DNA from: Alphaproteobacteria bacterium
Lineage (GTDB): Bacteria; Pseudomonadota; Alphaproteobacteria; JACZXZ01
Direction of reading: 5' to 3'
NCBI GenBank assembly: GCA_052143835.1
Contig: JBKQRV010000093.1
Location: 69,387 to 133,386, forward strand
DNA length: 64,000 bases
The notes under the pieces were generated by a model that saw nothing but the letters and a program-made list of their open reading frames with translations, was not told the origin of the DNA and searched no databases. The translations under genes and the position numbers were made by a program. This document shows, piece by piece, positions 8,482 through 36,189 of this stretch; within the stretch, counting starts at the first letter, position 1; each line of letters opens with the position of its first letter.

Positions 8482-8489
8482 CGGCGCTT

Positions 8490-8996: not shown

Positions 8997-11900
8997 ATGG
9001 ACGTGGCCGCGCTCTTTGCCCTCGGCGCCCTTGTCGCATGGTGGTTCTGGCCGCATCTCAGTGGGCGCGCGGTCTTCATCGGCGATTCGGACCGCATGAA
9101 TCACTTCCTGACGTGGCTCCGGAATTTCACGAACGGGCTGCGGCACGGCTATATCCCGACCTGGAACGAGTCCCTGTTCGGCGGCTACAGCGTCGTCGCA
9201 TTGCCCTATACCTATCCCAATCTCTTTGCCGCCCTCGCGGCCCTCTGGCCCGAGCGCCTGCTGATCGTCGTGGCGGGATGGATTTCCGCCCTCTTGATGG
9301 TGCTGGCGGGGTGGGCCGGCTACGCCTTCGTGCGCGACGTGACGCGGGAGCGCCTGACGGCCTTCACCGCGGCCGTGCTCTATCAGTCCTCCGCACTCGC
9401 GACCCTCAAGGTCAGCCAGAACGACATGAGCTTCGCGGTGCTGATCATCATTCCGTTGGTCATGTTGATCCTGCGCCGCGTGCGGCCCGGCAACATGGCG
9501 CCGTGCTTCGTCGGCCTGGCCTTGCTGCTGACCCATCTCTTGACGGTGGATTTCTTACAGAAAGCCGCTTACGCCTGCATGCTGTTCGGCCTTTATTCCA
9601 TCTACCGGCTGGTGAGCACCGGCAGTTGGCGTACGCCGTTCGTCCTCGTCAGCGCCGCAGTGGTCGCCGCCGTCGCCTCTTTCCCTCGCATCATGACGGA
9701 CGGCATCGAGCTCTCCCATTCGATCCGGCGCTACATCGGCGGTCAATCGGACAACCTGGACAGCGTCTATACCTCCATCGGACGCCATTTCAATTTCGAG
9801 ATTCTGCGCGCATTCGACGAGCGCATTCTTGGACGCACTTTCGCCGAATCCTACAGCTTCGGAAATATCTTCAATTTGCACGAGGGACTCCTCGTCTATT
9901 CGTCGACCTTCGCCACGCTTCTGATCCTGTGCGGAACGGTGCGGTATCTGCCCGCGCTGCTGCGTGGACGCCGCCTCATCGACGAAGATGCGCCGTTCCA
10001 CCTCGCCTTCGTCGCGTTCTGCGTGTTCGTGGTGCTGAGCAAGCTCGGCTTCACGATCATGTATGTGCTCATGGATCGCATCGACTTCATCCATGCCCGC
10101 ATCCTCGTCGCGGCCATGCTGCCTCTTGCCACGCTCGCAGCAGCGTATCTCTATCACTTGGGGGGCGGGAGCCACCTCGAGAAGCCGATCCTGCCGCGCT
10201 GGCCCCAGCTCCTCGCGGCGGCGCTCGCAGCTGGGCTCCTGGTGGCAGGCAGCGAGCATGTCGCCGATGCCACCGCCGGCCGGCCGATCCCGCTCGGCAT
10301 CTCGGAGGGCTTCACCGCGAACCTCACGGTATCGGCCGGCTCCGTGCTTCGGGTCGGCTTTTCGCTCTTCCTCTTCGCCGCGGTGCTCGCGGCGTCTCTG
10401 GGTCTCGACCGGCGCTCGCCTTGGCGCGGACCGTTGATGGCATTCCTCGCCTTCCTCATGATCTTCCAGGCCGCCGCCTTCGGAGCCTTTCAGCTTCGCG
10501 GTGACCAATTGCGCAGCGATTGGCGGCCGCTGCGGGAGCCGGCGGGCGAGACCAAAAAGCCGGAAAGCGAGCCAATGCCTTTCAAGGAGGCCGGACGCCT
10601 TCTCGCCCGAGCCGATGAGTTCAAAGGACCGACAGAGGCGGCGCTCTCGGCCATCGATCGCCGTCTCGAGCGCGACGATTACCGCACGGCCATTGTCTGC
10701 GATCCCAGCCGGATCAAGATCTTCTGCTCGCCGCACATCGCGAACTTTTGGCGCTTGCGCATGATCGAGGGCTATATCAGCTCGATCCCGGAGCGGCTCG
10801 AAATCCTGCCATGGCCCGCCAATTCGCTGAGCCAACGCTCGATCAGCTTCCCGAGCTTCGCCTCTCTGCCTTGGCCCCTGCTGAGCCTGTTGAATGTCAA
10901 ATATGCGATTGCCGTTCAGCCGGCCTTGTTTACCAACGCCGTAAGGCTGCCCGACGGCACGAGCCGCGAGCTCCGGCCCGAGGATCTCGAGATCCGGCAG
11001 AGCCCGCTTCCGGTGACGCCGAGGGTCTTCTTCGCGTCAACCGTTCAATCGCTTGCCGGGCCCGAGGCCGTGCTCGAGGCGCTTTTCCCGAAGGGCCAGC
11101 TGCGTCCCGAGGGTTACGACGCAGGGCGGCTAAGCTATGTGGAAGACGCCATTGGCGGGAGCTATAGCACGGCGGGTCAGGAGGACCTCAAGGCCTCGTT
11201 CCGCGACCAATACGCGACGATCGAATTTCCGCCTGCCGTGGCCCCGCGCTTTCTCGTCGTCAACGAGCGCTTCGACCCCTATTGGCGCGCCTATATCGGC
11301 GGCAAGGCAGCGAGGATCTATCCGACCAACCTCGTGATGCGCGGCGTCGTCGTCCCGCCCGGCGCGCGCGAGGTGACTATGATCTATCGGCCCTACGATA
11401 CTTCGGGCCGCGCCTTGGCCTTCTATCTCGCGGGCTTCGTTCTGTTCGGATTCGGATGTTGGGCCGTCGGCCGGACAGATCGACGGTTCCCCTCATTGAG
11501 CGCGGCGGAGATGGCGCGGCCTATGCGGCGCGCCGCGAGTTGGCTCCGGACGCGGTTAAGTGCATGGATTGCAGGCGATGCACCGGCGCTATTCCGGAGC
11601 TTGATCGCGATATCGATAATCTGGGCGATGGTCGTGGCCCTCAAATACCACCACGAGCCCAAGCTTCTGCTCATCGCCGTCGCTTGTCCGCTCGCCGGTC
11701 TCCTGCTTGTGCGGCTCGATTTGCGATTGGGGTGGCGGGCGGCCGCTTCGGCCGACCGGCTGGGCACCATCGCCGCCTTCGTCTTCATGCTGGCAATCTG
11801 GTCGGCCAGCCTCGTGCTGTGGAGGCGGGCCGGCGGCTTCTTCGGCGTTCGCGACACGGGCGAATCCGCGGCGATTTTCCTCTCGAGTCACCACGTCAGG

Positions 11901-13745
11901 GACATCGTGTCCTTCTTCTTGCAGGACCACGCGGCAAGTTCGGATCCGGCGGCGCTGGGCTACTTTTATATTCATCACCCCAATTTCATTTCGCGGCTTC
12001 TTTCCATGATCGGCATCGCATTGGGAATGTCGCAGGAGACGCTCATCCTCGCCTGCCTCATGCTTTCGGCGCTTTCGCTTCTGCTGGGCTTTCTCGCACT
12101 CCGCAGACTTTTCGCACCGCTTGTCGCGCTTGCGACTGTCGGATTCTTTGCAACCTCATATGGGGTCTATTTCGCCCAAGCCGGCGACCTGCTGCGCGGA
12201 CTGCATGTCGTGATGCTATGGCTGCTTGTCTACCTGATGGCGCTCGAATGGGATGGGCCGCCCGAGCGCCGGCACGGCCGCGATATCGCGCTCGCGGTAC
12301 TGTTCGTATTCATCGCCTCCTCGGATTGGGCATTCTTTGTCTTCTGTCTCGTTTTCTATTCAATGTGGAACGTTTACGCGCGCCGCCGCGTCGACGTGCG
12401 GCACCTCTTCGCTTGGGTCCTCGTGCCCTCTGCGCTGACGTTCCTCGCGTATTTTTGCATTATCGTCGCGCACACCGGCCTCGAGTTCTTCGTGACCGAC
12501 CTGCTGGTCACGTATTTCGGACGGATGGGCAACGTTTTCTTGGGAGCAATTTTGGGGGAGGCCCCGGACGTCAAGAAATTCCTCGAGTTGTATCAGGCGA
12601 AGCACATCGTCATGTGGGACGTGAGCCCGACGCCCGTTCGCTTGCGCGATGTCGTCACCGCTTACTGGCAGGTCATGCTCGCGGGCAGCCCATGGGTTGC
12701 GCGCGTCTTGTTCGCCACATTCATCGCCTGCTGTGGCGCGACGCTGCTGCGCGTCACGAAGGTCCGCGTGGCACGGGTCGTCGCGCTCGGTATGATCGCG
12801 GCGCTCGCGTTTGGCTTGGCGTTCTCTACGCTGGTCCCGATCCTGATTCTCTATCTGCTGATCGGTTTGCCGGGACTGAGGGCTGAGGAGCCGGCTTCTT
12901 CCGGCGCTGAGCAGAGCCGTCCGGGTCGGCTCGTGTCCGACTTGGCCGCATGGGTCACGATCCTGCTGAGCGCGTCGAGCGTGGTTGGCTTCCTGTTCCC
13001 CAACTACGTCTCCTGGCTTTGGAGCCAAGGAGCATCTCCCGTCGGCTTGCCGGACGCCGCGGCGTTTGGCCTCATTTGCCACCTCCTGGTCTATGCGCGC
13101 AGCTACGCCCGGGACGCGCGCTGGCTGCAGTCGCGCGCGGCCGAGGCAAAGGCGGCGCTGACACGCCTTGCCGCCGTTCTGTCGCTCTCGGCGCAAGCGA
13201 GCACAGGGCGCCGCAGCGTCGACCAAGGCGGGAAGCCACTCGCCACAAGTGATCATTCATGGCGTTTCCGCCCTTGGGGTGGCCCCGCGGCGGTTGCCGT
13301 CATCGCGGCTCTCCATATTTTCAGCAACTTCCAGCTTTACCGGCAATTCCCCCCTCTAGGGCCGCCCTTTGCATCGGCGCTGCGTCGGCCGGAATTTCAC
13401 GGCAAGCTCTTTGTCGCCAACGTGTATGATGGGCTGGTATGGTACTTCACGCGGGGCACCAGCCTCATCACCACCGTCGTGCCGCCTGAGCGCGGGAGCA
13501 CAGAGCGCTTCAGACATTTGCGGGATGGGGATGACCAGGCCAAATACGCGCATCCGGATTACTTCCTTTGCGACAACGATCCCTACTTCGCTTTCGTCCG
13601 CGTCGCGAGAATCGGCGGCAAGACCTGCCAGATGCCGGCCGAGTGCAGCTGCGGGGACGTATTGCATGAGATGGCCAAGCAGGGACACACGGCCGTTGTC
13701 GTCGCACCCAACTACGTGATCATGAAGTACAATTACGTTCATTGA
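8997..13745 (+). CDS. Fusion protein (type D, about 1580 aa). The N-terminal half is a YfhO-like domain that includes the YfhO C-terminal signature and its terminal helix. The C-terminal half is a type-B-like membrane domain plus soluble region without GW modules.
   Basis: ORF 8859..13745. ATG at 8997 (MDVAALF) is preferred. The mid-protein RFDPYWRAYIGGKAARIYPTNLVMRGVVVPPGAREVTMIYRPY plus the helix AFYLAGFVLFGFGCWAV matches the type-C C-terminus. The distal region (PEFHGKLFVANVYDG...YAHPDYFLCDNDPYFAF) aligns with type B (PPFRGHSFVANSYTA...PAYAFPDFYACFVQQN). Confidence 0.7.
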   Translation: MDVAALFALGALVAWWFWPHLSGRAVFIGDSDRMNHFLTWLRNFTNGLRHGYIPTWNESLFGGYSVVALPYTYPNLFAALAALWPERLLIVVAGWISALLMVLAGWAGYAFVRDVTRERLTAFTAAVLYQSSALATLKVSQNDMSFAVLIIIPLVMLILRRVRPGNMAPCFVGLALLLTHLLTVDFLQKAAYACMLFGLYSIYRLVSTGSWRTPFVLVSAAVVAAVASFPRIMTDGIELSHSIRRYIGGQSDNLDSVYTSIGRHFNFEILRAFDERILGRTFAESYSFGNIFNLHEGLLVYSSTFATLLILCGTVRYLPALLRGRRLIDEDAPFHLAFVAFCVFVVLSKLGFTIMYVLMDRIDFIHARILVAAMLPLATLAAAYLYHLGGGSHLEKPILPRWPQLLAAALAAGLLVAGSEHVADATAGRPIPLGISEGFTANLTVSAGSVLRVGFSLFLFAAVLAASLGLDRRSPWRGPLMAFLAFLMIFQAAAFGAFQLRGDQLRSDWRPLREPAGETKKPESEPMPFKEAGRLLARADEFKGPTEAALSAIDRRLERDDYRTAIVCDPSRIKIFCSPHIANFWRLRMIEGYISSIPERLEILPWPANSLSQRSISFPSFASLPWPLLSLLNVKYAIAVQPALFTNAVRLPDGTSRELRPEDLEIRQSPLPVTPRVFFASTVQSLAGPEAVLEALFPKGQLRPEGYDAGRLSYVEDAIGGSYSTAGQEDLKASFRDQYATIEFPPAVAPRFLVVNERFDPYWRAYIGGKAARIYPTNLVMRGVVVPPGAREVTMIYRPYDTSGRALAFYLAGFVLFGFGCWAVGRTDRRFPSLSAAEMARPMRRAASWLRTRLSAWIAGDAPALFRSLIAISIIWAMVVALKYHHEPKLLLIAVACPLAGLLLVRLDLRLGWRAAASADRLGTIAAFVFMLAIWSASLVLWRRAGGFFGVRDTGESAAIFLSSHHVRDIVSFFLQDHAASSDPAALGYFYIHHPNFISRLLSMIGIALGMSQETLILACLMLSALSLLLGFLALRRLFAPLVALATVGFFATSYGVYFAQAGDLLRGLHVVMLWLLVYLMALEWDGPPERRHGRDIALAVLFVFIASSDWAFFVFCLVFYSMWNVYARRRVDVRHLFAWVLVPSALTFLAYFCIIVAHTGLEFFVTDLLVTYFGRMGNVFLGAILGEAPDVKKFLELYQAKHIVMWDVSPTPVRLRDVVTAYWQVMLAGSPWVARVLFATFIACCGATLLRVTKVRVARVVALGMIAALAFGLAFSTLVPILILYLLIGLPGLRAEEPASSGAEQSRPGRLVSDLAAWVTILLSASSVVGFLFPNYVSWLWSQGASPVGLPDAAAFGLICHLLVYARSYARDARWLQSRAAEAKAALTRLAAVLSLSAQASTGRRSVDQGGKPLATSDHSWRFRPWGGPAAVAVIAALHIFSNFQLYRQFPPLGPPFASALRRPEFHGKLFVANVYDGLVWYFTRGTSLITTVVPPERGSTERFRHLRDGDDQAKYAHPDYFLCDNDPYFAFVRVARIGGKTCQMPAECSCGDVLHEMAKQGHTAVVVAPNYVIMKYNYVH

Positions 13746-13803
13746 GAGGCACCGCGCGGCGTCGGGCGCGCAGCACGGCCTCGCTCGGACCCAAACCTTG
13801 GCA

Positions 13804-16800
13804 ATGCAACGGCTCGGCATGGGAAAGCGGATTGCGGGTTTCGCGGGTGCGCTTGCATCGCGCGGATGGGCCTTTGCGCCGGCACTTCTGCTGGTGCTTG
13901 CCTTCAACCTCTATTGGTACGGCGCTTTTCTATCGTTCCCCGTGTTCGGGGAAGATGCGGCGTCGCTGTTGTACGTTCTGCTCGACACGATCAAGGGCGG
14001 CCACCTGGCAACCATAGGCTATCCGATGAATTGGTCGGAAGGCCTGGGACAGCCGAATCTCTTCATAACCTTCACCTTCGACCCTTTCGCTTGGGTGATG
14101 CTCCTGCCGCTCGACCCGGCCGATTGCTATCGCATTTCGATGGCGCTTCGTGCCACGGCAGCCTGGGCAGCGGGTTATTGGTTCTGCATCGTGTTGTTTC
14201 GCGGCCGGCCCATGGTCGCGATGTTCTCTGCGACGCTGTACATCCTGATCGGCTTCATTCTTACGAGCGCATGGGGCACCTATATCTGGGCCGGCATGTT
14301 CAATGCGACGCACGCGGCAATTTTTCCGCTTCTGGGAGCCTTTGCTCTCTTGATCATGCGGAGCCCGCGCCGCATAGGCATCGCGGACCTCTGTTTTCTT
14401 GTCTCGGTATTCTTCTTCATCCTCGATTATCCGGTCGGATCTCTGATCGGCATAGCCGTGTTCCTGACTTTCGCCGGCGCCGCAGCGCTTCTGGCACGCC
14501 CAGCCGAGCGCCGGACCGCAATTTGGGGATTCGCCAAAATCGCAGCAATGGTCGCTATCCTCCTTTTTGCTCCGCCGCTTCACATTTTCTCGTCGTGGAC
14601 GGCGCTCATACAGGGATCGGCGCGAGTGGTGTTTTCCGGCGAGCTGTTTGCATACGGCAACAGTCATGTGCCGCCGCTCATGTGGACGCGATCGCCCTGG
14701 GCTCTCAGAGTGTGCATCCTGGTCGGTTTGTCGGTGTTATTGCTCAACCGGCGTTGGCCGCGCCCGCTCCGAGTGCTTGCTGCCACCCTCTTCCTGGTGG
14801 TTGGCGGAGTGCAGCTCTTGGCACTTGTGAAGTATCTCGGGCTTGACGCTGGGCTCGTGGACCGTCTTCCGCGACTTCACTATTTCGAATTCTACTCGCC
14901 GCTTTTTTATGCTGCATGCGGGGGCTTCGCGTTGAGTCACTGGCGGGATGTCGCCTTTCCGGGCCTCGCTGATCGGCGGCATCTGCACGCGTGGACGTTA
15001 CGGACGATCATGTTCCTGGCAATCGCGCTCTACATCCTGCCGACGATCGTCGTTGTCGTTTCCGGCATTCTTCTGATCGTCGCGCACGCCTGGCTGCGCC
15101 GGGAGAGAAAAGGTGTTCGCAGCGTGGTGTCGCCGGTGGGGGGTCGTCTTGTTGCCCGTGCCGTTTTTGTGGCGCTCATCGCCGCCGCGATCGGAACTTG
15201 GCTGCCTCCCAGTGAGAAGATCTATCCTATCTTCTACGCCGAGAGCCGCTGCCGAGACGGCGTGCTTTGGTGCCGCGACCCGCCGGGCGCCACGATGGCT
15301 GTCGGCGACAATCCGATTACGCAGTACTTGCGGCGGGCCTTGAGCGCGGATGAGCATTTCTCCGGGCGCGCCGAGACTTGGGTCAGGCCGCCCGTCCGGA
15401 TCGGCCTTTATGCGCAAGTGGACATGCGGTGGACGGACGAGCTGTTCGCGCGCCTTCATGCATGGTACGCGCGGGCTTACGAAGCTCAAGTCATAAAGGG
15501 CTCGTCGGAGGACGATCTCTTCCGGCTTCCGCCGCAGCGAGTCGATTGGGACCGCCGCCAGTATCTGCTGGACACCCTTGCGAAATTCGCCCGCGGCGAC
15601 CTTCCGTATAACGGCCCGGCCCAGGAGAACCTGGTGCTCGAGATGCGCGACTGGATCGTCAGGCGCGGCCAGATGTTCGGCTTATTCGTAAAGGACTTCA
15701 CCGATCCGTGGCAGGGCATTAACTCCGTCCAGGCCGTCACCGAGGAACGTACGGCTGCGTTTTTCGCCACGGGAAATGGCCTCTTGCTACGAGCAATGCC
15801 GTTTCAGGGCGTTCCTGTCGCGTCGTCCTACGAGCAGGCGCTCGACTATCTTTATTATCTCTTCTGGACTCGGTATGTCAGCGCCGGTCAAGCAGCGTTC
15901 AAATCCATCAACATGACCACTTTGGAGGCACTTCATCCGGACCGCCTTGCGCTTGCGGGAATACGCTTTGTCGTGGCCCGCGACAGCAGCGCTTACGAAG
16001 CTCCTCCCCTCGAGCGGATCATGAGCTGGCAAGGGTATTCGATCTATGCGGTGCGGCATGCGAACGTCGCAGGCTACGCGGTAAAGAATCTCGAGTTCGG
16101 CAATACGCTGACCGAGGAATTGCGCCTGATGCGCCACCATGGTTTCGATCCCCGGCGTACCGCCGTACTTCCGGCGCGCGCGCGCCGTTCGTTTGCGGAC
16201 TCTACATTCCACGCGCCGGGGATGCTGGCGAGTTCATCCATCAGGTTGGCGCCAAACGAATTGACCTACTTGGCGAGGGGTTCCGGCGGTCCCGTTTTTG
16301 TCGTGCTGCCGTTTAACTGGTCGCATTGCTGGCAAGTGGAGTGGCGCAGGGGAACCGGAAATCTCACCCGCGCCGACATCGATCTGGTGGGAGTCGCCTT
16401 CGAGGGCGACGTCGAGCTGCATCTGCGTTGGACCGCCGGCTATGGCGCGCGTAGCCAGTGTCTCGGCGAGGATCAGACGCAGATCCCCGAGGCAAAGCGC
16501 GCGGCGGCCGCGGTCGGATTCGGCCAGGCCTATGAGCCGCTCGATCGGGATTTTCAACCCTTCGCCGCCGCGCGGCCTCGCTTTGCCGCCGACGCAGTCG
16601 ATGAGCGCGAGTTAGAAAGGAGATCCGATTACAGTAGCGGCAACGAAATGGTGGTGCCGAGCAGCGTGGTGGCGCTGCTGTCGAACGACGAGCTCTATGG
16701 GGGGGCGTGGACGACGTCGGTTTCCTCGGAATTCCGCCGGGACAACGGGGAGTACGAGCTCGTTGCCACGAACGACGGGGGTGCAAGCCTCGCGGTCTTG

Positions 16801-17472
16801 CCATTGCGGCATTCTTACTGTTGGCAGGCGGAATGGCGGGGCAAGGCCGGCGCCCTCCTCCCGGTCGACGCGGACCGGCTTAGCGTGCTGTTTCGCGGAT
16901 CCACATCGGTGCGGCTTCTCCTTCCGCCCGCGGACGAGCGCTCGAGCTGTGCGCTGCGCGACCGCGCGCGCGCGGCGGTTTTTGATTTTCTCGCGAACGA
17001 CCCTGTCAAGTCCGACGCGGCTCGCTACCGTCTCGGCGAGGCCATCGCCTTCGGCAGCGGGGGAAACAGCGAGTCCTTCACGGTGGAGGGATGGGGGCAG
17101 CCGGAAGCCTGGGGCCGATGGTCGCTTGGCTCGACCGCCAAGCTCGTGTTGAGAACGAATCCGCCGCCGACCGGTGATCTGATACTCGACGCATCGGTCG
17201 GTGCTCTACTCGCCGGAAGCCGGCGATTCGCGCGTGCGACGATCGTCGTCAACGGCGTCGAGGTCGGCAAGTGGGAGTTTCGTCCCGAGGATACGCCCGG
17301 GCGCCGTCAGGCAACCGTGCCGCGGGATTTGGTGGCGGATATCGGAGTGATGGTAATCGATTTCAAGGTCGACGAGCCCGTCTCGCCCGCCGAGCTCGCA
17401 GTGTCGCTCGATACTCGGCGCCTTGGCCTCAGTCTGCAAAGACTCACTGTGAGAGCCGCCGACAGCTATTAG
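13804..17472 (+). CDS. Giant membrane protein (type A, about 1220 aa). It has an N-terminal polytopic domain of about 450 aa, a large soluble region with two YfhO-C-like repeats, and one C-terminal GW-PE-WG module.
   Basis: ORF 13798..17472 has TTG at 13798 and ATG at 13804. It is paralogous to 20488..24156 over its full length and to 1..1959. The module is GWGQPEAWGRWSLG...SPAELAVSLDTRRLGLSL. Confidence 0.75.
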   Translation: MQRLGMGKRIAGFAGALASRGWAFAPALLLVLAFNLYWYGAFLSFPVFGEDAASLLYVLLDTIKGGHLATIGYPMNWSEGLGQPNLFITFTFDPFAWVMLLPLDPADCYRISMALRATAAWAAGYWFCIVLFRGRPMVAMFSATLYILIGFILTSAWGTYIWAGMFNATHAAIFPLLGAFALLIMRSPRRIGIADLCFLVSVFFFILDYPVGSLIGIAVFLTFAGAAALLARPAERRTAIWGFAKIAAMVAILLFAPPLHIFSSWTALIQGSARVVFSGELFAYGNSHVPPLMWTRSPWALRVCILVGLSVLLLNRRWPRPLRVLAATLFLVVGGVQLLALVKYLGLDAGLVDRLPRLHYFEFYSPLFYAACGGFALSHWRDVAFPGLADRRHLHAWTLRTIMFLAIALYILPTIVVVVSGILLIVAHAWLRRERKGVRSVVSPVGGRLVARAVFVALIAAAIGTWLPPSEKIYPIFYAESRCRDGVLWCRDPPGATMAVGDNPITQYLRRALSADEHFSGRAETWVRPPVRIGLYAQVDMRWTDELFARLHAWYARAYEAQVIKGSSEDDLFRLPPQRVDWDRRQYLLDTLAKFARGDLPYNGPAQENLVLEMRDWIVRRGQMFGLFVKDFTDPWQGINSVQAVTEERTAAFFATGNGLLLRAMPFQGVPVASSYEQALDYLYYLFWTRYVSAGQAAFKSINMTTLEALHPDRLALAGIRFVVARDSSAYEAPPLERIMSWQGYSIYAVRHANVAGYAVKNLEFGNTLTEELRLMRHHGFDPRRTAVLPARARRSFADSTFHAPGMLASSSIRLAPNELTYLARGSGGPVFVVLPFNWSHCWQVEWRRGTGNLTRADIDLVGVAFEGDVELHLRWTAGYGARSQCLGEDQTQIPEAKRAAAAVGFGQAYEPLDRDFQPFAAARPRFAADAVDERELERRSDYSSGNEMVVPSSVVALLSNDELYGGAWTTSVSSEFRRDNGEYELVATNDGGASLAVLPLRHSYCWQAEWRGKAGALLPVDADRLSVLFRGSTSVRLLLPPADERSSCALRDRARAAVFDFLANDPVKSDAARYRLGEAIAFGSGGNSESFTVEGWGQPEAWGRWSLGSTAKLVLRTNPPPTGDLILDASVGALLAGSRRFARATIVVNGVEVGKWEFRPEDTPGRRQATVPRDLVADIGVMVIDFKVDEPVSPAELAVSLDTRRLGLSLQRLTVRAADSY

Positions 17473-17561
17473 AGTATTTTCATAATTGCTGGCGATAACC
17501 GGCGTTGGCGGGATGCTCGGCGCATTCGGCGGAAGACAATCGCATTTCTAACGCGGCTTGT

Positions 17562-18356
17562 TCACCAGCTGCGCGATAATCGCCGAGCGAGAATTCGGAA
17601 AAGGCTGTGGCCGACCGATACGAAATTGCGTAGGCGCAAAGCCTTCGACCCTGGCGACGCGGTCGCTGGCAGGACGAGCTCTTTGTAGCTAGCTCCTTCT
17701 CCCACCAGACGTGTAATGAGCTCGGCCTGGAATCCGAATCCGGTCGACTCGACGGCAAAGCGCATCACCTGCCACCGTCGGTAGGCGGGAAATCCGTTGT
17801 AGTACTCGATCCTGATCCCCGAGATCTTATTGACAAGCCAGGTGTATAGGCGGGACAGGCCCTTACGGAGCACGCCGCGCCCGCGCACGTCGCGATAGAC
17901 GGGGATGATGATGTCTGCCTCGCCAAGACTGCGCATGATTGCGTCATGCGCCTCGGGCAACTCGTAGTTATCCCCGGCGACCGCACGGTAGTACGTGCCC
18001 TTCCCAAGGAACGCGCAGTCGGTGAAGTTGCGGCCGAGACCGCGATTTCGGGGCAGCGTAATTAGTCGTATGTTCAGCTCGGGATGCCTCCCTTGGTAGG
18101 TGCGGACGACCTCGCTAGTCCGGTCTGTTGAACAATCGTCGAAGACGATCACCTCGATTGTCGTGCCGGTGCGCCGCGATGCGGAAAAGACGTTCTCAAG
18201 GGCATTGACCACATGCCCCTCCTCATTGAGGCACGGCATGAAGACGGTCAGCTCGATGGGCCACTCGCCCCCCAAGGCCTCTTCGAGAATCCGATCCACC
18301 TCGAGTCCTCTCTCCCAGCCACCTGCAAGAGACGCCTCACGCGGCCTATGTCGCAC
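17562..18356 (-). CDS. Family 2 glycosyltransferase of the DPM1/ArnC/CsbB-like polyprenyl-phosphate sugar synthase type.
   Basis: IELTVFMPCLNEEGHVVNALENV...VIVFDDCSTDRTSEVV is a GT2 A-type fold with a DxD-like FDD motif. The likely start is GTG at 18356. Confidence 0.7.
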   Translation of the reverse strand: MRHRPREASLAGGWERGLEVDRILEEALGGEWPIELTVFMPCLNEEGHVVNALENVFSASRRTGTTIEVIVFDDCSTDRTSEVVRTYQGRHPELNIRLITLPRNRGLGRNFTDCAFLGKGTYYRAVAGDNYELPEAHDAIMRSLGEADIIIPVYRDVRGRGVLRKGLSRLYTWLVNKISGIRIEYYNGFPAYRRWQVMRFAVESTGFGFQAELITRLVGEGASYKELVLPATASPGSKALRLRNFVSVGHSLFRILARRLSRSW

Positions 18357-18480
18357 GGGTAAGACGCGGTCGTGGCCGTCGTCGTCCCGGACAGATGAAG
18401 TTCGCGTGAGGACGCTGATATCGGATCAGTCACATGCGCCGCTGCAGGCTCCGATGCGACCTTGCCTTCGCTGTATTCGG

Positions 18481-19470
18481 CTATGCGTGCAAGGTGAACG
18501 CCGTATCGTCCTCGCGAATAAGGTCGAGGTATTTGCGTCCCCAGGCAATCATGTCCTTGATTCCAACCTGAAGACTGATTTGGGGTTGCCAGCCAAGCTC
18601 CGCGAAGATGCGCGAGCTGTCGAGCCAATACTGCGGGTCCTCGCCTGGCCGCCCCTCTGTCGTCTCGGTCAATTCGTCCATTGCGATACCGAATTGCTCG
18701 GCGAGAATGGCGACGAGATCGTGCACGCTGATGGGTTCCTTCGGGCCCGCATTGTAAATTCTTCCCAACGGCGCTCGCTCGCAGATGAGGTAAATTGCAT
18801 GGGCAAGATCCCGCGCGTGAATAAACGAACGCCGCGTACGGCCGGCGCCCTCGAGCGGCAGCTTTTGCCCGGTTAGGGCGCAGAGCACCGCACGAGGTAG
18901 TACACGATGCAGTTGCTGGCCGGGGCCATAGGCATTCGACGGTCGGATGATGTTCATCGGGAACTTGAAAAACTTCCAAAGTGAAATCAAGTGCAAGTCC
19001 GCGGCCAGCTTCGAGACGGCGTATGGGCTGGCCGGCAAGAGCGGAAAGTCCTCCGTCGCCGGCGACTCGGTGTGGCCATAGAGCTCAGACGTTCCAATTT
19101 GCAGGAAGCGCTCCAAATAGTCCCGCTTCAAGAGCTCTTCGCAAGTCTGGGCGAGGCAGGTGACATTGGTCTCGTAATATCGCCATGACTTGTGCCAGGA
19201 ACTCGAATGCGCGAGCGCTGCGAAATTAACGATCACTTCCGGCTTCTCGCGATCGAGCAGCTCGAAGAGACGATCCTGCTCGAAGACCATATGGATCTGC
19301 TCGTATCGGTAGCGCGAATCGTCCTTGCCCACATCGAGCGTATAGGCCGCGGAGCGCGGGATGTTTCTTCCCACGCAGATAACCCTTCGAGGGTTGGCGT
19401 GCTCAAGAAGATACTTTGCAGTATGTACGGCAAAGACGCCACCGCCGCCAAGCAAGACAAAGGTCCTCAA
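18481..19470 (-). CDS. NAD(P)-dependent epimerase/dehydratase (extended SDR; nucleotide-sugar 4,6-dehydratase or epimerase-like).
   Basis: It has an N-terminal Rossmann motif (LLGGGGVFAV), a YxxxK motif (PYAVSK), and length and overall features of the RmlB/GalE/UXS family. The start appears to be TTG at 19470. Confidence 0.75.
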   Translation of the reverse strand: MRTFVLLGGGGVFAVHTAKYLLEHANPRRVICVGRNIPRSAAYTLDVGKDDSRYRYEQIHMVFEQDRLFELLDREKPEVIVNFAALAHSSSWHKSWRYYETNVTCLAQTCEELLKRDYLERFLQIGTSELYGHTESPATEDFPLLPASPYAVSKLAADLHLISLWKFFKFPMNIIRPSNAYGPGQQLHRVLPRAVLCALTGQKLPLEGAGRTRRSFIHARDLAHAIYLICERAPLGRIYNAGPKEPISVHDLVAILAEQFGIAMDELTETTEGRPGEDPQYWLDSSRIFAELGWQPQISLQVGIKDMIAWGRKYLDLIREDDTAFTLHA

Positions 19471-20487
19471 TGAGTTCTTCCTTTCAGAAATGTGTAGGGA
19501 ACGTTCGACCCGCTGTAGGGCGGCTAAGCTAAGAGAATCCCCCTTCCTTGTAAATAGGACCGGACCGCGGATAAAGGCGTCGGCTTCCCCCGCCCAGCGA
19601 TGGGGCGGCGAAAAGCCGTGCTCCTAGCTTCGCACGCGTCTCAAATCGTCGATCTGGCTGGTTGTGCCCGCCAGATCACATGCTCGCGAAGAGGCTGCTA
19701 CGCGGGGCGCCACCTCGCAAACCGCACAGCAGCTCAACTGCATATGGCGGCGCGCAGAAGACGGAGCTGATATGCCGAAATCTGCGCCCCCGCGACACGA
19801 CTCCGATCCGAGGCTTTTCGGCGCTTGCGGGCCTTTCGCGGGTCGCCTTTCTAGCGAAACGGGGCATGGTTGGTAAGTTGCTTGATTTACCGAGAAGATC
19901 GGGTATTCAGGTGCGCAATGCCTCAGAACTTCAAAAGCCGCCCCGACCGTTCGGGCAGGCGGGTGCGGGCAGGCAAGTGCCAATGCCCGTATATCTCGTT
20001 GACCGGTTCAGGCGATGGAACTATAGATTGAGGTCACTTCACAGAAAAGTAAGTCGCGGCGGGATATCGTGGTACAGAATGATCCGGCCCAAGGCGCGGA
20101 GCACGTAACTCCGCGACGCCTCGCCCGCAACCTCGACCCTCTGGCATCACTTGCGGCCGCCGGAGGGGCACTCTTACAATCTTCCGGCCATGCGGCGCAT
20201 CCTGGGACAGAAGGGCGTTGTAACGCCGCTCGCGGTCGGTCATCTGGGCCACAAATTCCATCGGTGCCGTCCGGAGCCGCAGTTCGCGCGCGGCGCGTCG
20301 GCGGCGTGAGGCGGGTCGCGCTGGCCCGGCAACCTATCCCACCCCAGGGGGGCTCGCTCGGCCGTCTGGGCCGCCGCGGCCGATCCGAGAGCCGTCGCCC
20401 CCGGTATCTGCGCGCACTTCCGCGCGACTTGGCCTTGTTCCTGCGAGTCTGCGCATGAGCGAGCCGTTAGCGTAGCTGAACCAGGCC

Positions 20488-23400
20488 GTGCGGCGAACCA
20501 CACTGACCCCCTATCTCGACAACCTTGTCCGCCTCGTCGCCTCGGACCGGCGCGCTTTTCCGCTCGCTCTCCTGCTGGTGCTGGCGTTCAACCTCTTCTG
20601 GTACGGTGCCTTCCTGTCGTTTCCGCTCTTCGGCGAGGATGCGGGAGCGCTATTCTCCAACCTCCTCGAGACGATCAAGGACGGCCAGCTCGCGACCACC
20701 CATTTCCCCATCAAATGGCTCGAGGGCCTGGGGCAGCCCAATCTCTTCGTCACCTTCACCTTCGATCCGTTCTCGTGGGCGATGCTGCTGCCGCTCGAGC
20801 AGGCGGATTCGTTCCGCCTCTCGATGGCGCTGCGCGCGAGCGCGGGTTGGCTCAGCAGCTACTGGTTCGTGCTCGTGCTTTTTCGCGGCCGGCGCGGCGT
20901 GGCGCTGACCGCGGCGACGCTCTATCTCCTTGTCGATTTCACGCTCATGAACGCGTGGGGAATTCATACTTTCGCCGGCATGTACAACGCGACCCATGCC
21001 GCGCTGTTTCCGCTCCTGCTGGCGCTCGCCCTTCTCGTCATGCGCAGCCGGCGCTGGCTCGGGCCTGCCGATCTCGCCCTTCTCGTCGCGCTGTTTTTCT
21101 TTCTGCTCGATTACCCGATCGGCTCCCTGATCGGCACCTGCGTGCTCCTCGCCTACACGGTCGTGGCTCTCGGACTGACGCGCCCAGCCGAGCGCGCGGC
21201 CGCCGTGCGGGGCCTTGCGAAAATCGTGGCGATGGTGGCGATTCTGCTGCTGGCGCCGCCGCTTCATGTTCTCGCGTCATGGTCGGCGCTGCTGCAGGAT
21301 TCAGCCCGAACAGTCTTTCCCGGCGAGCTGTTCGCTTACGGATATGACTATGTGCCACCGGTGATGTGGGCGCGGACGTCACCCGCTTTGCGCGCCTGCA
21401 TTCTCCTTTGCCTGTCGGTGCTGCTGTTCAATCGGCGCTGGCCGCGCCCCTTGCGCATGGCGGTCGGAACCCTGCTCATAGTAGTCGGTGGCGTGCAGCT
21501 CGCCGCACTCGCCAAGTATCTGGAGTGGGCCCCGACGCTCATCGACCGCCTGCCGCGCTTCCAGTTTTTCGAGTTCTACGCCACGCCCGCTTATGCGGCG
21601 TGCGGTGGCTTCGCGCTCTATTACTGGCGGGACCTGCTGTTTCCGCGCCTGGCGGGGAGGCGGCGCGTCGTGTCGTGGCTGCGGGGTGCCATCCTTTTCT
21701 TCCCTCTCGCCGTCGTCGTCTTGCCGCTTGGGGCGGTTGCGGTCGGCACCTATGCGCTCCTCGCCATCGTCGCGCGCGCGCGCGGCGAGGCTCAGCGCGC
21801 CGACTGGACGGCGTCGCCCGCATCGCAGCGTCTGGTTGCGCGGGCGGCCCTGATCGCGCTCGTGTTGGCCGCGGTCGGGGCCTGGCTGCCTCCGACCGCG
21901 TATATTTATCCCATTTTCTATCTCTACGGCCGTTGCCAGACCGGCCTCTTTTGGTGCCGCGACCCGGCCGGCGTGACGATGGGCATGGGCGACAATCCCA
22001 TCACCCGATATCTGCGCCGGGCGCTCGGCGGGGAAGGGCCGTTCGCGGGGCGCGCGGAGACCCTCGTCAGGCCCCCCGTTCGGTTCGAGCGCGCGCCTGC
22101 GGGGGAAATCAAATGGACGCCCGAGCTCTATGACCGCCTCCACCGGTGGTACGCGCGCGCGTACGACGCATTGGCCGACAAAGGCTCACCCACCGGCGAT
22201 CCCTTTTGGCTGGCGCCGCAGGATTTCACCTGGGAGGCGCGCTGGCCGCTCCTGGTGGCGCTGGACAAATTCGGCCACGGCGACGTGGAGTTCGACGGTC
22301 CCTCCCAGGAGGATCTGATCTTGGAGATGCACAAGTGGTACGACGAGGAGGGCCGCAAGTTCGGCCTGCTTGCGCGCGACTTCATGGACCCATGGGAGGG
22401 CATGCTCTCGGTTACTGCCGCCGTCGATGAGCGGAACGCGGCGTTCTTCGGTACCGGCAATGGCCTCATGATGCGGGCATTGCCGTTCCAGAATGTTCCG
22501 GTCGCCTCCTCGTACGAGCAGAGCCTCGGCTATCTCTATTATCTGCTGTGGACGCGCTACGTCAGCGCCGGCCAGCGCGGGTTCAAGTCCATCAATATGA
22601 CCAGCCTGGAGGCGCTCCACCCGGAACGGCTGGCGCTCTTGGGCGTGCGTTACCTGCTCGCGCGCGACAGCAAGGTCTACGAGCGGCCGCCGCTTCCGCA
22701 CGTCATGAGCTGGAACGGCTATTCGATCTATGAGGTGCCCGGTGCGAACGTCGCCGGTTACGGCGTGAGCGGGGTCGAGTTCGGGAGCACCTTGACGGAC
22801 GAGCTGAGGCTCATGCGGCGACATGGCTTCCACCCGAGAGACACGGCCGTACTGCCCGCGAGCGAGCGCACTTCATTCGAGGGTAGGCCGGCCCGAGCTT
22901 GGGGCACCTTGCAGAGCTCAGCGATCACCCTCACGCCCGGCGAGTTGACGTTTACGGCCGTCGCTTCCGGCGGAGAGAGTTTCGTCGTGCTGCCGTTCAA
23001 CTGGTCGCATTGCTGGCAGGCCGAGTGGCGTAAGGGATCCGGACGCTGGAGCCGCGCGGATGTCGATTTGATCGGCGTCGCCTTTACGGGCGAGATCGAG
23101 CTGCATCTACGGTGGACGGCAGGCTACGGTTCCGCGAGCGCCTGCTTGCGCGACGACCGGAAACAGATCGCCGAGGCAAAGCGCGCGGCGGCCGAGATCG
23201 GCTTCTCACAGCCCTACGAGCCTTTCGACGGCCGCTCGCCGCCCTTCGCCGCGGTCCGGCCGCGCTTCGCCGCGGATGCGGTCGAGGCGACGGTGCTGGA
23301 GCTGAAGTCGATGTACCAGAGCGGCGACGAGGTAGTGGTGCCCATTTCCGTCAAGCAGTTGCTGTCGCCCGCCGAGCTCGATGGCAGCGCCTGGTCGACG

Positions 23401-24156
23401 GGGGTCAACTCGGATTTTCGGCCGAGCACGGACGGGTACGAGCTCGTGGCGCGCAATGAGGGTGGCGTGAGCTTATTGGTCTTGCCGGTGCCCTACTCGA
23501 CCTGCTGGCAGGCGGAGTGGCAGGGAAGCCCCGGCGCCCTCGTCCCCGTCGACGAGAGCTGGCTCGGCGTGCTGTTCCGCGGCGCGGCTGCACTCCGGCT
23601 TCGTCTCCCGGCCGAGGCTGCGCAGGCAAGCTGTGCCCAAGCGGACCGCGCGCGGGAGCGGATCGTCGATCTCCTCAAAGGCGACGCCGGCAAAATCGTC
23701 GGTGGACGCTATACAATCGGCGACACCATCAAGTTCGGAGCCGGCAGCGGCTCTGAATGGTACACGACGCGGGGATGGTGGGGCGCTGAGTCGTGGGGAA
23801 GATGGTCGGTCGGCGACGACGCGCGGCTGGTCCTGCGGCTGGGGGCACCGCCGCCGGGCGACCTGGAGCTCGATGCGGATTTGACGGCTTTGATTCTGCC
23901 CAATCGACCGGAAGTGCGGGCGACGGTGCGCGTCAACGGGATGAAGCTCGCCGTGTGGGACTTCCGTGCCGATAACACGCCCGGCCGACGCCAGGCCATC
24001 GTGCCGCGCGACTTGGTGGCGGATGCGAGGGTGATGATCGTCGATTTCCGGATCGACCATGTGGCCTCGCCGCTCGAGCTCGGCGCTTCGAGCGACAAGC
24101 GGCCCCTGGCACTCGGCTTCCGCAGCCTGACCGTGCGCGTCGCGGGGGCCCATTAG
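20488..24156 (+). CDS. Giant membrane protein (type A paralog, about 1220 aa).
   Basis: The start is GTG at 20488. It is collinear with 13804..17472: AFNL(Y/F)WYGAFLSFP(V/L)FGED, NRRWPRPLR, VPVASSYEQ(A/S)L(D/G)YLYYL(F/L)WTRYVSAG. The C-terminal module is GWWGAESWGRWSVG...SPLELGASSDKRPLALGF. Confidence 0.8.
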   Translation: MRRTTLTPYLDNLVRLVASDRRAFPLALLLVLAFNLFWYGAFLSFPLFGEDAGALFSNLLETIKDGQLATTHFPIKWLEGLGQPNLFVTFTFDPFSWAMLLPLEQADSFRLSMALRASAGWLSSYWFVLVLFRGRRGVALTAATLYLLVDFTLMNAWGIHTFAGMYNATHAALFPLLLALALLVMRSRRWLGPADLALLVALFFFLLDYPIGSLIGTCVLLAYTVVALGLTRPAERAAAVRGLAKIVAMVAILLLAPPLHVLASWSALLQDSARTVFPGELFAYGYDYVPPVMWARTSPALRACILLCLSVLLFNRRWPRPLRMAVGTLLIVVGGVQLAALAKYLEWAPTLIDRLPRFQFFEFYATPAYAACGGFALYYWRDLLFPRLAGRRRVVSWLRGAILFFPLAVVVLPLGAVAVGTYALLAIVARARGEAQRADWTASPASQRLVARAALIALVLAAVGAWLPPTAYIYPIFYLYGRCQTGLFWCRDPAGVTMGMGDNPITRYLRRALGGEGPFAGRAETLVRPPVRFERAPAGEIKWTPELYDRLHRWYARAYDALADKGSPTGDPFWLAPQDFTWEARWPLLVALDKFGHGDVEFDGPSQEDLILEMHKWYDEEGRKFGLLARDFMDPWEGMLSVTAAVDERNAAFFGTGNGLMMRALPFQNVPVASSYEQSLGYLYYLLWTRYVSAGQRGFKSINMTSLEALHPERLALLGVRYLLARDSKVYERPPLPHVMSWNGYSIYEVPGANVAGYGVSGVEFGSTLTDELRLMRRHGFHPRDTAVLPASERTSFEGRPARAWGTLQSSAITLTPGELTFTAVASGGESFVVLPFNWSHCWQAEWRKGSGRWSRADVDLIGVAFTGEIELHLRWTAGYGSASACLRDDRKQIAEAKRAAAEIGFSQPYEPFDGRSPPFAAVRPRFAADAVEATVLELKSMYQSGDEVVVPISVKQLLSPAELDGSAWSTGVNSDFRPSTDGYELVARNEGGVSLLVLPVPYSTCWQAEWQGSPGALVPVDESWLGVLFRGAAALRLRLPAEAAQASCAQADRARERIVDLLKGDAGKIVGGRYTIGDTIKFGAGSGSEWYTTRGWWGAESWGRWSVGDDARLVLRLGAPPPGDLELDADLTALILPNRPEVRATVRVNGMKLAVWDFRADNTPGRRQAIVPRDLVADARVMIVDFRIDHVASPLELGASSDKRPLALGFRSLTVRVAGAH

Positions 24157-24400
24157 GAAGGCGCGATGGACGCCTGCCCTCGGTCCGCGACCACGCCGCC
24201 CGACCGCGCAAGGCACATCTGCGCTCCGAACCCGCTCGCATCGCCTGGCCGCAGCGCCTGCCGATAGGCCGATTTCTTGCGTTCGCCGAGCGGAGCGCCC
24301 GACGTAACGGGCCGTATCGATTGCCAAGAGCGGGGGAGTGGACGTCGTCGGTTCTCCCGATCCTGCGGCGATTGATCGCGCTTAGGCCGGAACGCTCGCA

Positions 24401-26143
24401 TTATTGCGAAGCTTCCGTGACGACGCAGGAGTGCACGGCAATCCCGCCGAAAATGATTTGCCAGGTTCGACAGCGGTCGGTGCCGAGCAGCGCGAGATAG
24501 CCCTCCCGCTCGAGATATTCATGTTCGGCTTGTGCGGTTGCCAAATCGCCGGCCCAACTGTGCGGATCAACCGGCGCCATCCACATGAACACATAGCGCT
24601 TGGGCATGGGCATCTTGCGCCCCATTCCGATGTCGATCCCGTCGCGTCGGGTCGCGCGGTAGTCAACAAACCAATATTGCGGGAAAAATCGCTCTCGCGT
24701 CGGATTCTCGTTGGCATCAAAGGGGGGAGGCGCAGGGAGGGGGGTGAGCCCCCGGGCCATCATGTCCTCAATCGTTCCGACGCCGAAAAAATTATTGGGG
24801 ATCAAGGTGACGATGGGCAGGCCGTGCGAGCGGTTCCAGTCATAGACACGCTGGTTCCATAATCCGCCTGCCCGCTTGTCGGCCTCGGCCATTATCGAGA
24901 TCATGCCGGCGTTGTCACGGACCAGGGGAAAGCTCTTTATTGTCCACAATGCCGCAAGGGCCAAGACGCCGATTCCAAAGACCGCGAGCATGCCATTCGC
25001 ATCACGACTGGGCCGCAGACGCGAGACGAGGATAAGGGCGACGGTGGGGACCGCAAGATAGAAGTCGATCGCGGAAGTCGCGGCGCCGCGCCTCAATACG
25101 AAATAGAGGTTGGCTGCGATTGCGGTCAAGCCCGCCCAAACGATGGGGTTGCGGGCGCCATGGGGATGCCGAAGGAGGGCGCCCGCAATGGCGACGAGGC
25201 AAAAGCCCGACATCATCCATATGGGAACATAGGAGCCACTGCCGAACCACGGATGCGCCAGATTAAGCAGCTCGGCCGCAAATGATGAAGATCCTGTTAA
25301 GCCCGACATCCAGCCGTAAAGGAGCACCACGAACCGAACGGCGTACCTGACATTGCCATGATAATAGACGAGGAGACATAGCGCGTAGGTGGCGCCACAC
25401 GCCGCTGCGAGCATCGCGACGTCCCGCGCACGATGCCGGCTCGTGGCGAAAATCGAGGCGCCAAGCATCAGTGCAGGCGTCACGATATAAATGATCTTCA
25501 ATCCAGCCAACAGGCCCATGATGGCTCCCGAGAGTGCCACCAGCTTCACCATGCGTCGCTCTGTCAGGGCCGGTCCAGCAAGAGCCAAGCTGACAAATGC
25601 CATGAGAATGAGTAACGGTTCCTGAAGGACGTAATAATCGGGGAGCAGTGTGAACCAAAGGCCATAGTACGACCCATATTCATAGACCAGCGGGAGAGCG
25701 AAAAGCGCAAGTTTGGAGGGAAAGTCGATCGCCCGGCTACGCGCGATCGCAATTAGGACGAGTGCGAGCAGCACGGTCGCACTCAGGCTGGTCGCAAGCG
25801 CGAACAAGTTTGTCTTCTCCACCAGGGCGTTCTGCGGCGCCGGGTCGACGAGCCTAAGCGCCAAATAGATCGCCTGTTGGATGATGCCAGTCAGCGTCCC
25901 TTGGATTGGATGCGTGAAGTCGGCCGGATTCTCGATTGCGCGCAATATATTGAAGTAGCGGTAGCCGATGTTTTCGTTGAAGGCCGGGGCAACGCTCGTG
26001 CCAGCGACGATGAGGTGCAGTAGCGGAGCTGCGTAGACAATAACCACCGCCAACGCAAGCAAGAGCACGCCTGGAGTGGCGGCAACGAACCGGTGCGCGA
26101 TCCCTGGCCTTTTCGATGCAACGCCGCTAATCCTATCCAACAT
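24401..26143 (-). CDS. Polytopic membrane protein (about 580 aa, more than 10 TM helices plus a C-terminal soluble domain). It is GT-C-like and unrelated to the YfhO-like array.
   Basis: The ORF is 24401..26179, and ATG at 26143 (MLDRISG) is preferred. A hydrophobic profile runs through about aa 430, followed by a soluble C-terminal region. Confidence 0.5.
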   Translation of the reverse strand: MLDRISGVASKRPGIAHRFVAATPGVLLLALAVVIVYAAPLLHLIVAGTSVAPAFNENIGYRYFNILRAIENPADFTHPIQGTLTGIIQQAIYLALRLVDPAPQNALVEKTNLFALATSLSATVLLALVLIAIARSRAIDFPSKLALFALPLVYEYGSYYGLWFTLLPDYYVLQEPLLILMAFVSLALAGPALTERRMVKLVALSGAIMGLLAGLKIIYIVTPALMLGASIFATSRHRARDVAMLAAACGATYALCLLVYYHGNVRYAVRFVVLLYGWMSGLTGSSSFAAELLNLAHPWFGSGSYVPIWMMSGFCLVAIAGALLRHPHGARNPIVWAGLTAIAANLYFVLRRGAATSAIDFYLAVPTVALILVSRLRPSRDANGMLAVFGIGVLALAALWTIKSFPLVRDNAGMISIMAEADKRAGGLWNQRVYDWNRSHGLPIVTLIPNNFFGVGTIEDMMARGLTPLPAPPPFDANENPTRERFFPQYWFVDYRATRRDGIDIGMGRKMPMPKRYVFMWMAPVDPHSWAGDLATAQAEHEYLEREGYLALLGTDRCRTWQIIFGGIAVHSCVVTEASQ

Positions 26144-28749: not shown

Positions 28750-28813
28750 GCGCTCCGCGCGGCAATCGGCGTCCGGCGGGACGTCGCCGCAGCGGGGCGA
28801 GAGTGGGCGGCGA

Positions 28814-36166: not shown

Positions 36167-36189
36167 AGCGTGCCTCAGTGCCCACTCTC

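Follow-up and report, generated by a model that had tools for sequence, protein, structure and literature searches.

How a bacterium might feed sugar to a whole row of very large membrane proteins is the question raised by a 64,000-nucleotide stretch of alphaproteobacterial DNA (contig JBKQRV010000093.1, positions 69,387 to 133,386; hereafter the window, with a G+C content of about 65%). Its left part carries a series of giant polytopic proteins on the plus strand and, set among them on the minus strand, a pair of genes encoding a family 2 glycosyltransferase (GT2), here called GT2A (17562..18356, −), and a short-chain dehydrogenase/reductase (SDR; 18481..19470, −). The coordinates and gene calls of the initial annotation, which was made from the sequence alone, held on re-checking. 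We consider it rather probable that GT2A makes a lipid-linked sugar that the giants transfer in the periplasm, as an enlarged form of the known multi-component transmembrane glycosylation scheme. The logic of such glycosylation is already known; the size and number of the giants are unusual.

The longest open reading frame (ORF) of GT2A encodes 264 amino acids (aa) and matches PF00535 (E 1.3e-15). Since its homologues are about 245 aa long and begin at the counterpart of V21, the GTG near 18296 is probably the true start, giving a protein of about 244 aa. The class of GT2A was settled by fold comparison only, as the sequence searches did not discriminate. An AlphaFold2 (AF2) model built from the family alignment (predicted local distance difference test score [pLDDT] 90, predicted template modeling score [pTM] 0.87) was compared with known structures using Foldseek, and the first 16 hits were all ArnC, DPMS, or GtrB chains. 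For this reason, GT2A is classed with these enzymes: by its modeled fold it is a polyprenyl-phosphate-type GT2 rather than a processive or glycan-acting one, and its activity would be expected to follow. The family alignment (36 sequences in the profile) contains a conserved FGFQAEL...GS(K) segment in the acceptor half followed by a C-terminal helix, predicted at residues 242–263 in the AF2 model; both features resemble the equivalent region of ArnC and DPM1, a likeness that serves as a lead rather than a test. The profile matches to ArnC, GtrB, and AglJ also reach further into the acceptor half (about 160–190 residues).

Several observations weigh against this assignment. Searches with NCBIfam, phmmer, and the family profile against the PDB did not separate GT2A from other classes, with ArnC, GtrB, DPMS, and AglJ scoring like chondroitin synthase, TarS, and PgaC, and chondroitin synthase was the top HMMER match. 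In the place where ArnC, GtrB, and DPMS have a DxD motif, the GT2A family has A/C-G-D: an invariant G128-D129 is preceded by alanine or cysteine (D-A-D in ArnC), although the second aspartate and the following conserved glutamate are kept. A hydropathy scan found no transmembrane (TM) helix in GT2A, so that the C-terminal TM anchor helices of GtrB, ArnC, CsbB, and Pyrococcus furiosus DPMS (PfDPMS) are not present, and no small membrane partner like GacJ or DPM3 is evident near the gene. This lack bars strict membership in a GtrB/ArnC/CsbB-type group, such as CsbB with its C-terminal TM helices, but not membership in the wider class. Human DPM1 is a polyprenyl-phosphate synthase without a TM helix. 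The same holds for GacI, another synthase of the class (PMC8035078).

Two further searches placed GT2A among its relatives. In the genome collection, its close relatives numbered two, one in an alphaproteobacterial metagenome-assembled genome (MAG) and one in a Planctomycetia MAG, and taxonomic conclusions are therefore weak. A tblastn search of phage genomes for annotated GtrB genes, with GT2A and with the second GT2 discussed further below (GT2B), returned weak matches, nearly all of them unannotated.

The SDR gene lies directly upstream of GT2A on the same strand and the two are probably cotranscribed. Its 329-aa product is an extended-SDR epimerase/dehydratase (PF16363 and PF01370, E ~1e-38) and is probably the nucleotide-sugar-modifying enzyme that makes the sugar-nucleotide donor. 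The best NCBIfam match is dTDP-glucose 4,6-dehydratase, at 173 bits compared to an equivalog cutoff of 365, and the best PDB matches are RmlB-type enzymes. However, the protein carries GTSELYG where RmlB-type 4,6-dehydratases have TDEVYG. A bona fide dTDP-glucose 4,6-dehydratase was accordingly considered and rejected as unproven, given a score far under the cutoff and a TSE in place of the catalytic TDE. Judging from its sequence, the enzyme need not be a 4,6-dehydratase even though its best matches are. The presence of a dedicated SDR also makes it probable that the sugar handled by GT2A is not mannose.

To the left of the pair, on the other strand, lies E (13798..17472, +), a 1,224-aa membrane protein that closes a series of five large ORFs on the plus strand (A to E). 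Its paralogue F (20488..24156, +; 1,222 aa), the sixth large ORF, is found on the far side of the pair, and the two are 59% identical over their full length by blastp. A (1..1959, +) is the C-terminal part, at least 621 aa, of a third paralogue, whose frame is open to position 1 and whose N terminus lies beyond the window start; it is 54–57% identical to residues ~600–1224 of E and F. The N-terminal module of E has about 11 TM segments (residues ~1–480); after it come about 700 aa in the periplasm, with a DUF7024-like domain at their end. Weak Pfam matches to DUF7024 were obtained for A and E, and a literature search for this domain returned no papers. Comparison of the AF2 model of E (pLDDT 76, pTM 0.83) with known structures gave AglB (19.1), ALG12 (18.7), AftD (18.4), STT3B (18.0), and Pmt4 (16.7) as best matches, then AftA (15.7), ArnT (15.5), PglB (14.9), ALG9 (14.7), and so on to ALG6 (8.1); past the GT-C entries, the list turned to unrelated helical repeats. 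GT-C enzymes usually carry a catalytic acid in the loop after TM1. In the E family, an aspartate (D53) in the motif FPxFGED just after TM1, in the first extracytoplasmic loop, is invariant in all 24 members. On this modeling, A, E, and F are GT-C enzymes, E by its predicted fold and F and A by paralogy.

The same model makes these proteins a new and rare GT-C family lacking any Pfam, NCBIfam, or PDB sequence match. Their TM domain had no Pfam match in any of the 24 members, YfhO (PF09586) included at E ≤ 1, and membership of A, E, and F in YfhO was thus rejected at the level of Pfam. The family profile found no real hits among PDB sequences, and neither did the periplasmic region of E. A word-indexed search of 5.8 billion sequences with the TM domain of E found 8 proteins, while an exhaustive HMMER scan of 1.84 billion sequences found 52 cluster representatives of the family.

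The remaining large proteins are more heterogeneous. B (2302..5925, +; 1,207 aa, ~11 TM by hydropathy scan) shares with A, E, and F two DUF7024-like repeats in its C-terminal region only (blastp), and its sole Pfam match is very weak (DUF6080, E 0.077). C (5962..8481, +) is an 839-aa polytopic protein with a terminal TM helix. D (8859..13745, +) is 1,628 aa long with about 22 TM segments, in which two polytopic modules are fused: D1 (residues ~1–850) matches an 801-aa gene and D2 (residues ~850–1628) a 671-aa gene in the metagenomic loci L082 and L083, respectively, where they stand as separate genes. From these matches, D would be a double GT-C-like fusion. C and D1 score under the YfhO gathering score of 28.5 bits (14.9 and 16.6 bits, respectively), each collinear over the C-terminal 40–50 residues; an orthologue of C (38% identity) in locus L084 reaches 26.9 bits and a related protein in locus L082 29.8 bits, so that C and D1 appear by sequence to be marginal YfhO relatives. 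G (24401..26179, −), a 592-aa polytopic protein with 8–10 TM segments, has no Pfam match even at E ≤ 10. Comparison by hhalign of the TM domains of B, C, D1, D2, G, and TM12 (the membrane protein of a separate gene trio described below) with the E family and with each other gave nothing convincing, the sole signals being B with D2 (E 9e-4) and the C-terminal tails of C and D1 (E 5e-4). By a simple hydropathy scan, strongly hydrophobic segments number 9 to ~22 in each of B to F and 0 in GT2A and SDR.

The initial annotation had described a polyprenyl-phosphate-class GT2 sitting next to a nucleotide-sugar epimerase/dehydratase and convergent with an array of YfhO-like proteins, larger and more numerous than in known systems. 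Most of this stood: the GT2A model falls in the polyprenyl-phosphate class and not the processive one, E has a GT-C fold in its model, the neighboring enzyme belongs to the predicted type, very large polytopic proteins do form an array on the plus strand, and GT2A is convergent with E at a gap of 89 bp. For this module, neither of the outcomes that the initial annotation had named as refuting occurred. The YfhO label, on the other hand, applied marginally to C and D1 and not to A, E, and F by Pfam, and the proposed profile-based classification of the GT2 proteins was uninformative for GT2A, as the classes scored alike. The idea that two such modules bracket the locus had to be dropped, since the GT2A/SDR pair lies inside it, between E and F, and the other proposed module about 7.5 kb outside it.

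The association of GT2A, SDR, and polytopic giants is conserved. In two of the three related metagenomic loci examined (L082 and L083, the third being L084), the GT2A–SDR pairing is kept, with SDR orthologues of 69–76% identity at 8964..9953 and 8962..9951, respectively, both of which carry the GTSELYG motif. Across the three loci, GT2A homologues of 54–72% identity adjoin proteins of 500–890 aa with 9–15 TM segments. In L082 (72%), the SDR gene is followed by 889-, 836-, 771-, and 801-aa proteins, of which three were scanned and had 11–15 TM segments, two of them with weak YfhO matches; in L083 (58%), it is accompanied by a run of large proteins, and the three scanned (745, 671, and 507 aa) had 10–12. 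In L084 (54%), an orthologue of G (29% identity; 8189..9961) lies directly upstream of the GT2A homologue, with the C orthologue nearby. A more distant homologue (48%) in the alphaproteobacterial MAG (L001) has an 11-TM protein immediately upstream, and another locus (L170) has an E-family homologue beside a methyltransferase–GT4–GT2–GT4 block resembling that of the window. Recurrence of this neighborhood in unrelated metagenomic contigs supports a functional link between the three components. As a point against it, no GT2A gene was found within the available 13 kb of two short contigs with E-family homologues (L168 and L169), which hold arrays of large Pfam-less proteins.

Paired Pfam-less genes encoding about 155–175 aa recur beside the giants in some of these loci (11829..12842 and 13775..14786 in L083, 11374..12341 in L084, and 2325..3337 and 10401..11413 in L168) and are absent from the window; their products could be accessory subunits. 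Separately, a metagenomic contig (contig_77105 of sample ERZ25039587) has a partial GT2 with 99% identity to GT2A and shows the same gene order as the window locus, with a 1,222-aa protein, SDR, GT2, and then 1,222-aa and 1,582-aa proteins.

Beyond F and G, the genes fit a polysaccharide context. Pfam identified a methyltransferase (26374..27141, −), a GT4 (27235..28749, +), a GT2 within the ORF at 28511..29719 (+), a second GT4 (29503..30894, +), a Wzt-type ATP-binding cassette (ABC) ATPase with a Wzt_C carbohydrate-binding domain (30946..32265, −), and a further GT2 (32262..33203, −), which is the last glycan gene. On balance, we favor the view that positions 1 to 33.2 kb form one surface-polysaccharide locus, at least 33 kb long, with the GT2A/SDR pair in its middle.

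In the scheme that we favor, SDR would turn a nucleotide sugar into a modified one, and GT2A, as its fold suggests, would load the modified sugar on polyprenyl phosphate on the cytoplasmic side of the inner membrane. Some flippase would then carry the lipid-linked sugar across to the periplasm. For this role G is the sole candidate, on purely speculative grounds; it might instead be a protein that partners GT2A at the membrane, or one more transferase. The large GT-C-type proteins would pass the sugar to a periplasmic acceptor, with A, E, and F placed in this role at the level of fold, C and D1 as marginal YfhO relatives, and B and D2 assumed to be GT-C-type transferases. The large periplasmic domains of the giants would probably bind this acceptor, which is most likely a polymer that the adjacent GT4 and GT2 enzymes build and the Wzt-type ABC transporter exports. 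What the analysis shows directly is the fold of GT2A and that of E, together with the invariant aspartate and the shared gene order; each enzymatic step, the existence of a flippase, the identity of the acceptor, and the placing of B, D2, and G among GT-C proteins are inferred.

Parts of the window do not sit easily with this scheme. Neither a scan for small multi-TM ORFs nor Pfam identified a GtrA, Wzx, MATE, or ArnE/F-type flippase in the window; ORFs of at least 60 aa with at least 2 TM segments correspond only to the large proteins and the Liv permeases, leaving no small GtrA-type candidate. Likewise, none of the ORFs across the 64 kb resembles a Wzm (ABC-2) permease, which leaves the link to the Wzt pathway incomplete. 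B, D2, and G received no Pfam-family assignment or PDB sequence match for fold or family, and the best structural match of E, AglB, is an oligosaccharyltransferase, which keeps a diphosphate-linked donor in consideration.

According to a different view of the giants, they would act without GT2A, as oligosaccharyltransferase-, ligase-, or polymerase-like enzymes on undecaprenyl-diphosphate-linked glycans made by the GT4 and GT2 enzymes, with GT2A serving another pathway. The full cytoplasmic set of GT4 and GT2 genes in the locus would suit such an arrangement, as would the failure to find in the window a flippase for a monophosphate-linked sugar. However, the GT2A–SDR pair is flanked by E and F and recurs beside such proteins in other contigs, and the presence of an exporter of the Wzt type implies a polymer finished before it leaves the cytoplasm; we therefore hold this view to be distinctly unlikely. 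A somewhat better case, still an unlikely one, can be made for a locus that does not decorate a glycan but assembles a polysaccharide in the periplasm, much as the mycobacterial Emb/Aft enzymes do. Seven GT-C-like modules per single synthase is an unusual ratio, for which periplasmic polymerization of the Emb/Aft type is conceivable: the seven modules, of at least three sequence-unrelated families and with the unannotated A/E/F family and the 1,628-aa double fusion D among them, would each form their own linkage, drawing on one polyprenyl-phosphate sugar that the helix-less DPMS-like synthase makes from an unusual SDR product.

Doubt can also be directed at GT2A itself, which might be a soluble GT-A enzyme acting on a non-lipid acceptor, such as a phosphorylated metabolite of small size in the manner of GpgS/MpgS, or on a growing lipid-linked glycan, its position being a matter of operon convenience. 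The missing TM helix, the missing first aspartate of DxD, and the first rank of chondroitin synthase in HMMER would all agree with this, but the top 16 Foldseek hits comprise polyprenyl-phosphate glycosyltransferases only, helix-less synthases such as DPM1 and GacI are known in that class, and the gene keeps its synteny with polytopic proteins. The conserved C-terminal helix after the xGSK-like motif, presumably equivalent to that of ArnC, points the same way, and we would give a soluble enzyme of this kind little credence. The transfer by the giants of a lipid-linked sugar made by GT2A thus remains the reading that we prefer.

Set beside known systems, the predicted locus has several partial counterparts. 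The three-component CsbB/GtcA/YfhO systems glycosylate teichoic acids in Bacillus, Listeria, and Staphylococcus (PMC5836110, PMC8035078). As there, a polyprenyl-phosphate-class GT-A is encoded beside large GT-C-type proteins, with C and D1 as marginal YfhO relatives, and the predicted logic is a lipid-linked monosaccharide followed by extracytoplasmic transfer. In contrast, GT2A is without the C-terminal TM helices of CsbB, no GtrA/GtcA flippase was found in the window, seven GT-C-like modules stand in place of one and most are not YfhO by Pfam, and the host is Gram negative. The GacI/GacJ/GacK/GacL-type systems of streptococcal rhamnose polysaccharides, which are soluble-GT-A variants (PMC8035078), also rely on a cytoplasmic GT-A without an anchor of its own to make a lipid-linked sugar with which a GT-C decorates a polymer outside the cytoplasm, whereas here no GacJ-like small partner or Wzx-type flippase is recognizable and the GT-C enzymes would be far larger and more numerous.

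Closer in cell envelope are the GT136 GT-C enzymes of Citrobacter youngae, which have C-terminal carbohydrate-binding modules and modify ABC-transporter-dependent O antigens in the periplasm after polymerization (PMC11127046), and the Gtr systems of Shigella and Salmonella. Shared features include the Gram-negative host, a Wzt-type export locus beside GT-C proteins with large periplasmic domains, and a dedicated lipid-donor synthase, although this synthase would here be a DPMS-like GT2 instead of a phosphoribosyl-type enzyme, no MATE or GtrA flippase was found, and no relation in sequence between the GT-C proteins and known families could be detected. Mycobacterial arabinan assembly, with its decaprenylphosphoryl arabinose donor and its EmbA/B/C and AftA–D enzymes, is comparable in that many GT-C enzymes seem to use one lipid-monophosphate sugar and that the enzymes are very large, with periplasmic domains of carbohydrate-binding type. 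It differs in the donor pathway and the phylum, and there is no sequence relationship. Compared to the type represented by P. furiosus DPMS (5mlz) and human DPM1, GT2A is only 17–20% identical and has xGD for DxD, and PfDPMS has four TM helices.

If the model is true, the locus would be among the densest GT-C clusters known outside Mycobacteriales, fed by one anchor-less DPMS-like synthase, and A, E, and F would constitute a new GT-C family, hence missed by CAZy and Pfam. It would offer a tractable system for how Gram-negative bacteria build or heavily remodel periplasmic glycans, and, with no known flippase family in the window, would prompt one to ask how the lipid-linked donor is flipped. 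The practical value is modest for now, the logic being known and every biochemical step a prediction.

Base composition and noncoding signals were also surveyed. Third-position G+C is about 0.70–0.79 in the GT-C array, GT2A, SDR, and G (0.83 in F), compared to mostly 0.85–0.92 in most housekeeping genes further along (1..26200 versus 33000..64000), a difference in composition that suggests horizontal acquisition of the glycan locus. Between the divergent SDR–GT2A unit and F, about 1 kb (19471..20487) contains no convincing ORF; this gap gave no Rfam hit and no promoter or terminator signals above shuffled controls. The Rfam scan of the whole window and the promoter and terminator scans around the GT2A/SDR pair likewise gave nothing above background. 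The G+C minimum of the window (0.59, at 18–20 kb) falls around the same gap.

The other proposed module is a trio of minus-strand genes at 40793..43700, about 7.5 kb past the last glycan gene (33203) and behind unrelated ones: the 33.4- to 40.7-kb interval holds non-glycan genes for a luciferase-like oxidoreductase, a Liv-type ABC transporter, and a glutathione S-transferase. The first gene encodes a cupin (43236..43700, −), the second GT2B (42268..43236, −; 322 aa), whose N-terminal half is that of a generic GT2, and the third TM12 (40793..42271, −), a 492-aa polytopic membrane protein. Their junctions overlap by 1 nucleotide (TAATG) and 4 nucleotides (ATGA). The initial annotation had likened this trio to a Gtr/Arn-type modification cassette. 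The genes and their overlapping junctions proved real, whereas a simple hydropathy scan gave TM12 10 strong TM segments and not the 12 reported. For GT2B, profile classification pointed to a sugar-nucleotide-to-glycan transferase instead of the polyprenyl-phosphate synthase that the comparison implied, an outcome that the initial annotation had itself named as refuting.

For GT2B, 13 full-length relatives were retrieved from metagenomes and 9 of them aligned with it. This set conserves GGCDE...QDYSIELR, which we take to be a motif of ordinary nonprocessive GT2s, and the hydropathy scan found no TM helix in GT2B. Against the PDB, the family profile matched K4CP (8e-27) and GalT1 (2e-22) far ahead of ArnC (1e-11), DPMS (6e-8), and GtrB (6e-4), with all matches confined to the first 90–120 residues, and hhalign with the GT2A family aligned 111 N-terminal columns only, i.e., the nucleotide-binding half. 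Because of this preference for glycan-acting GT2s and the N-terminal-only alignment, GT2B looks like a conventional sugar-nucleotide-to-glycan transferase, as judged from sequence profiles. TM12, for its part, is probably a GT-C protein, on weak and indirect evidence. Its family (18 relatives) has an invariant FPD(42)SxGY motif, with D42 after TM1, together with RPYGYP; 10 of 17 family members gave weak Alg9-like GT22 matches under the cutoff (best E 7e-4), and UniRef names one relative "Glycosyltransferase RgtA/B/C/D-like." No PDB match was found for TM12 by sequence or profile. A more distant relative sits among Wzy_C, GT2, and heptosyltransferase genes, a setting that hints at lipopolysaccharide (LPS) core chemistry.

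That the trio might nonetheless be a cassette of the Gtr/Arn type, with GT2B supplying its GT-C partner with a lipid-linked sugar, would be in keeping with translational coupling of the genes, their retention as a unit in two close relatives, and the GT-C-like traits of TM12 just described. We regard this as very improbable, given the preference of the GT2B profile for glycan-acting GT2s by many orders of magnitude, its alignment to the DPMS-like family over the nucleotide-binding columns only, and its motif and missing TM helix. The trio also has no small 4-TM GtrA-family flippase gene, its first gene being a cupin. In addition, more distant GT2B relatives have no membrane partner and a Magnetospirillum relative of TM12 stands alone. 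The trio is a unit separate from the glycan locus and not a Gtr/Arn-type cassette; it probably serves LPS or envelope glycan modification, through a cytoplasmic GT2 of the ordinary kind and what is probably a GT-C enzyme.

A trio with 65–87% identity to that of the window was also present in a different organism, on contig_79912 of the same sample, ERZ25039587. ARAGORN called a tRNA-Ser(cga) at 43654..43738 (+), where it overlaps the beginning of the cupin gene, which runs on the other strand, while Rfam at its gathering threshold reported no tRNA; the call is probably a false positive in GC-rich sequence. Just past the trio lies an AMP-dependent ligase gene (43817..45472), and a second Cupin_2 protein is encoded at 47185..48435 (+). 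Two separate Liv-type branched-chain amino acid ABC transporter clusters (34811..39091 and 52815..59900) provide an ordinary metabolic context unrelated to the glycan genes.

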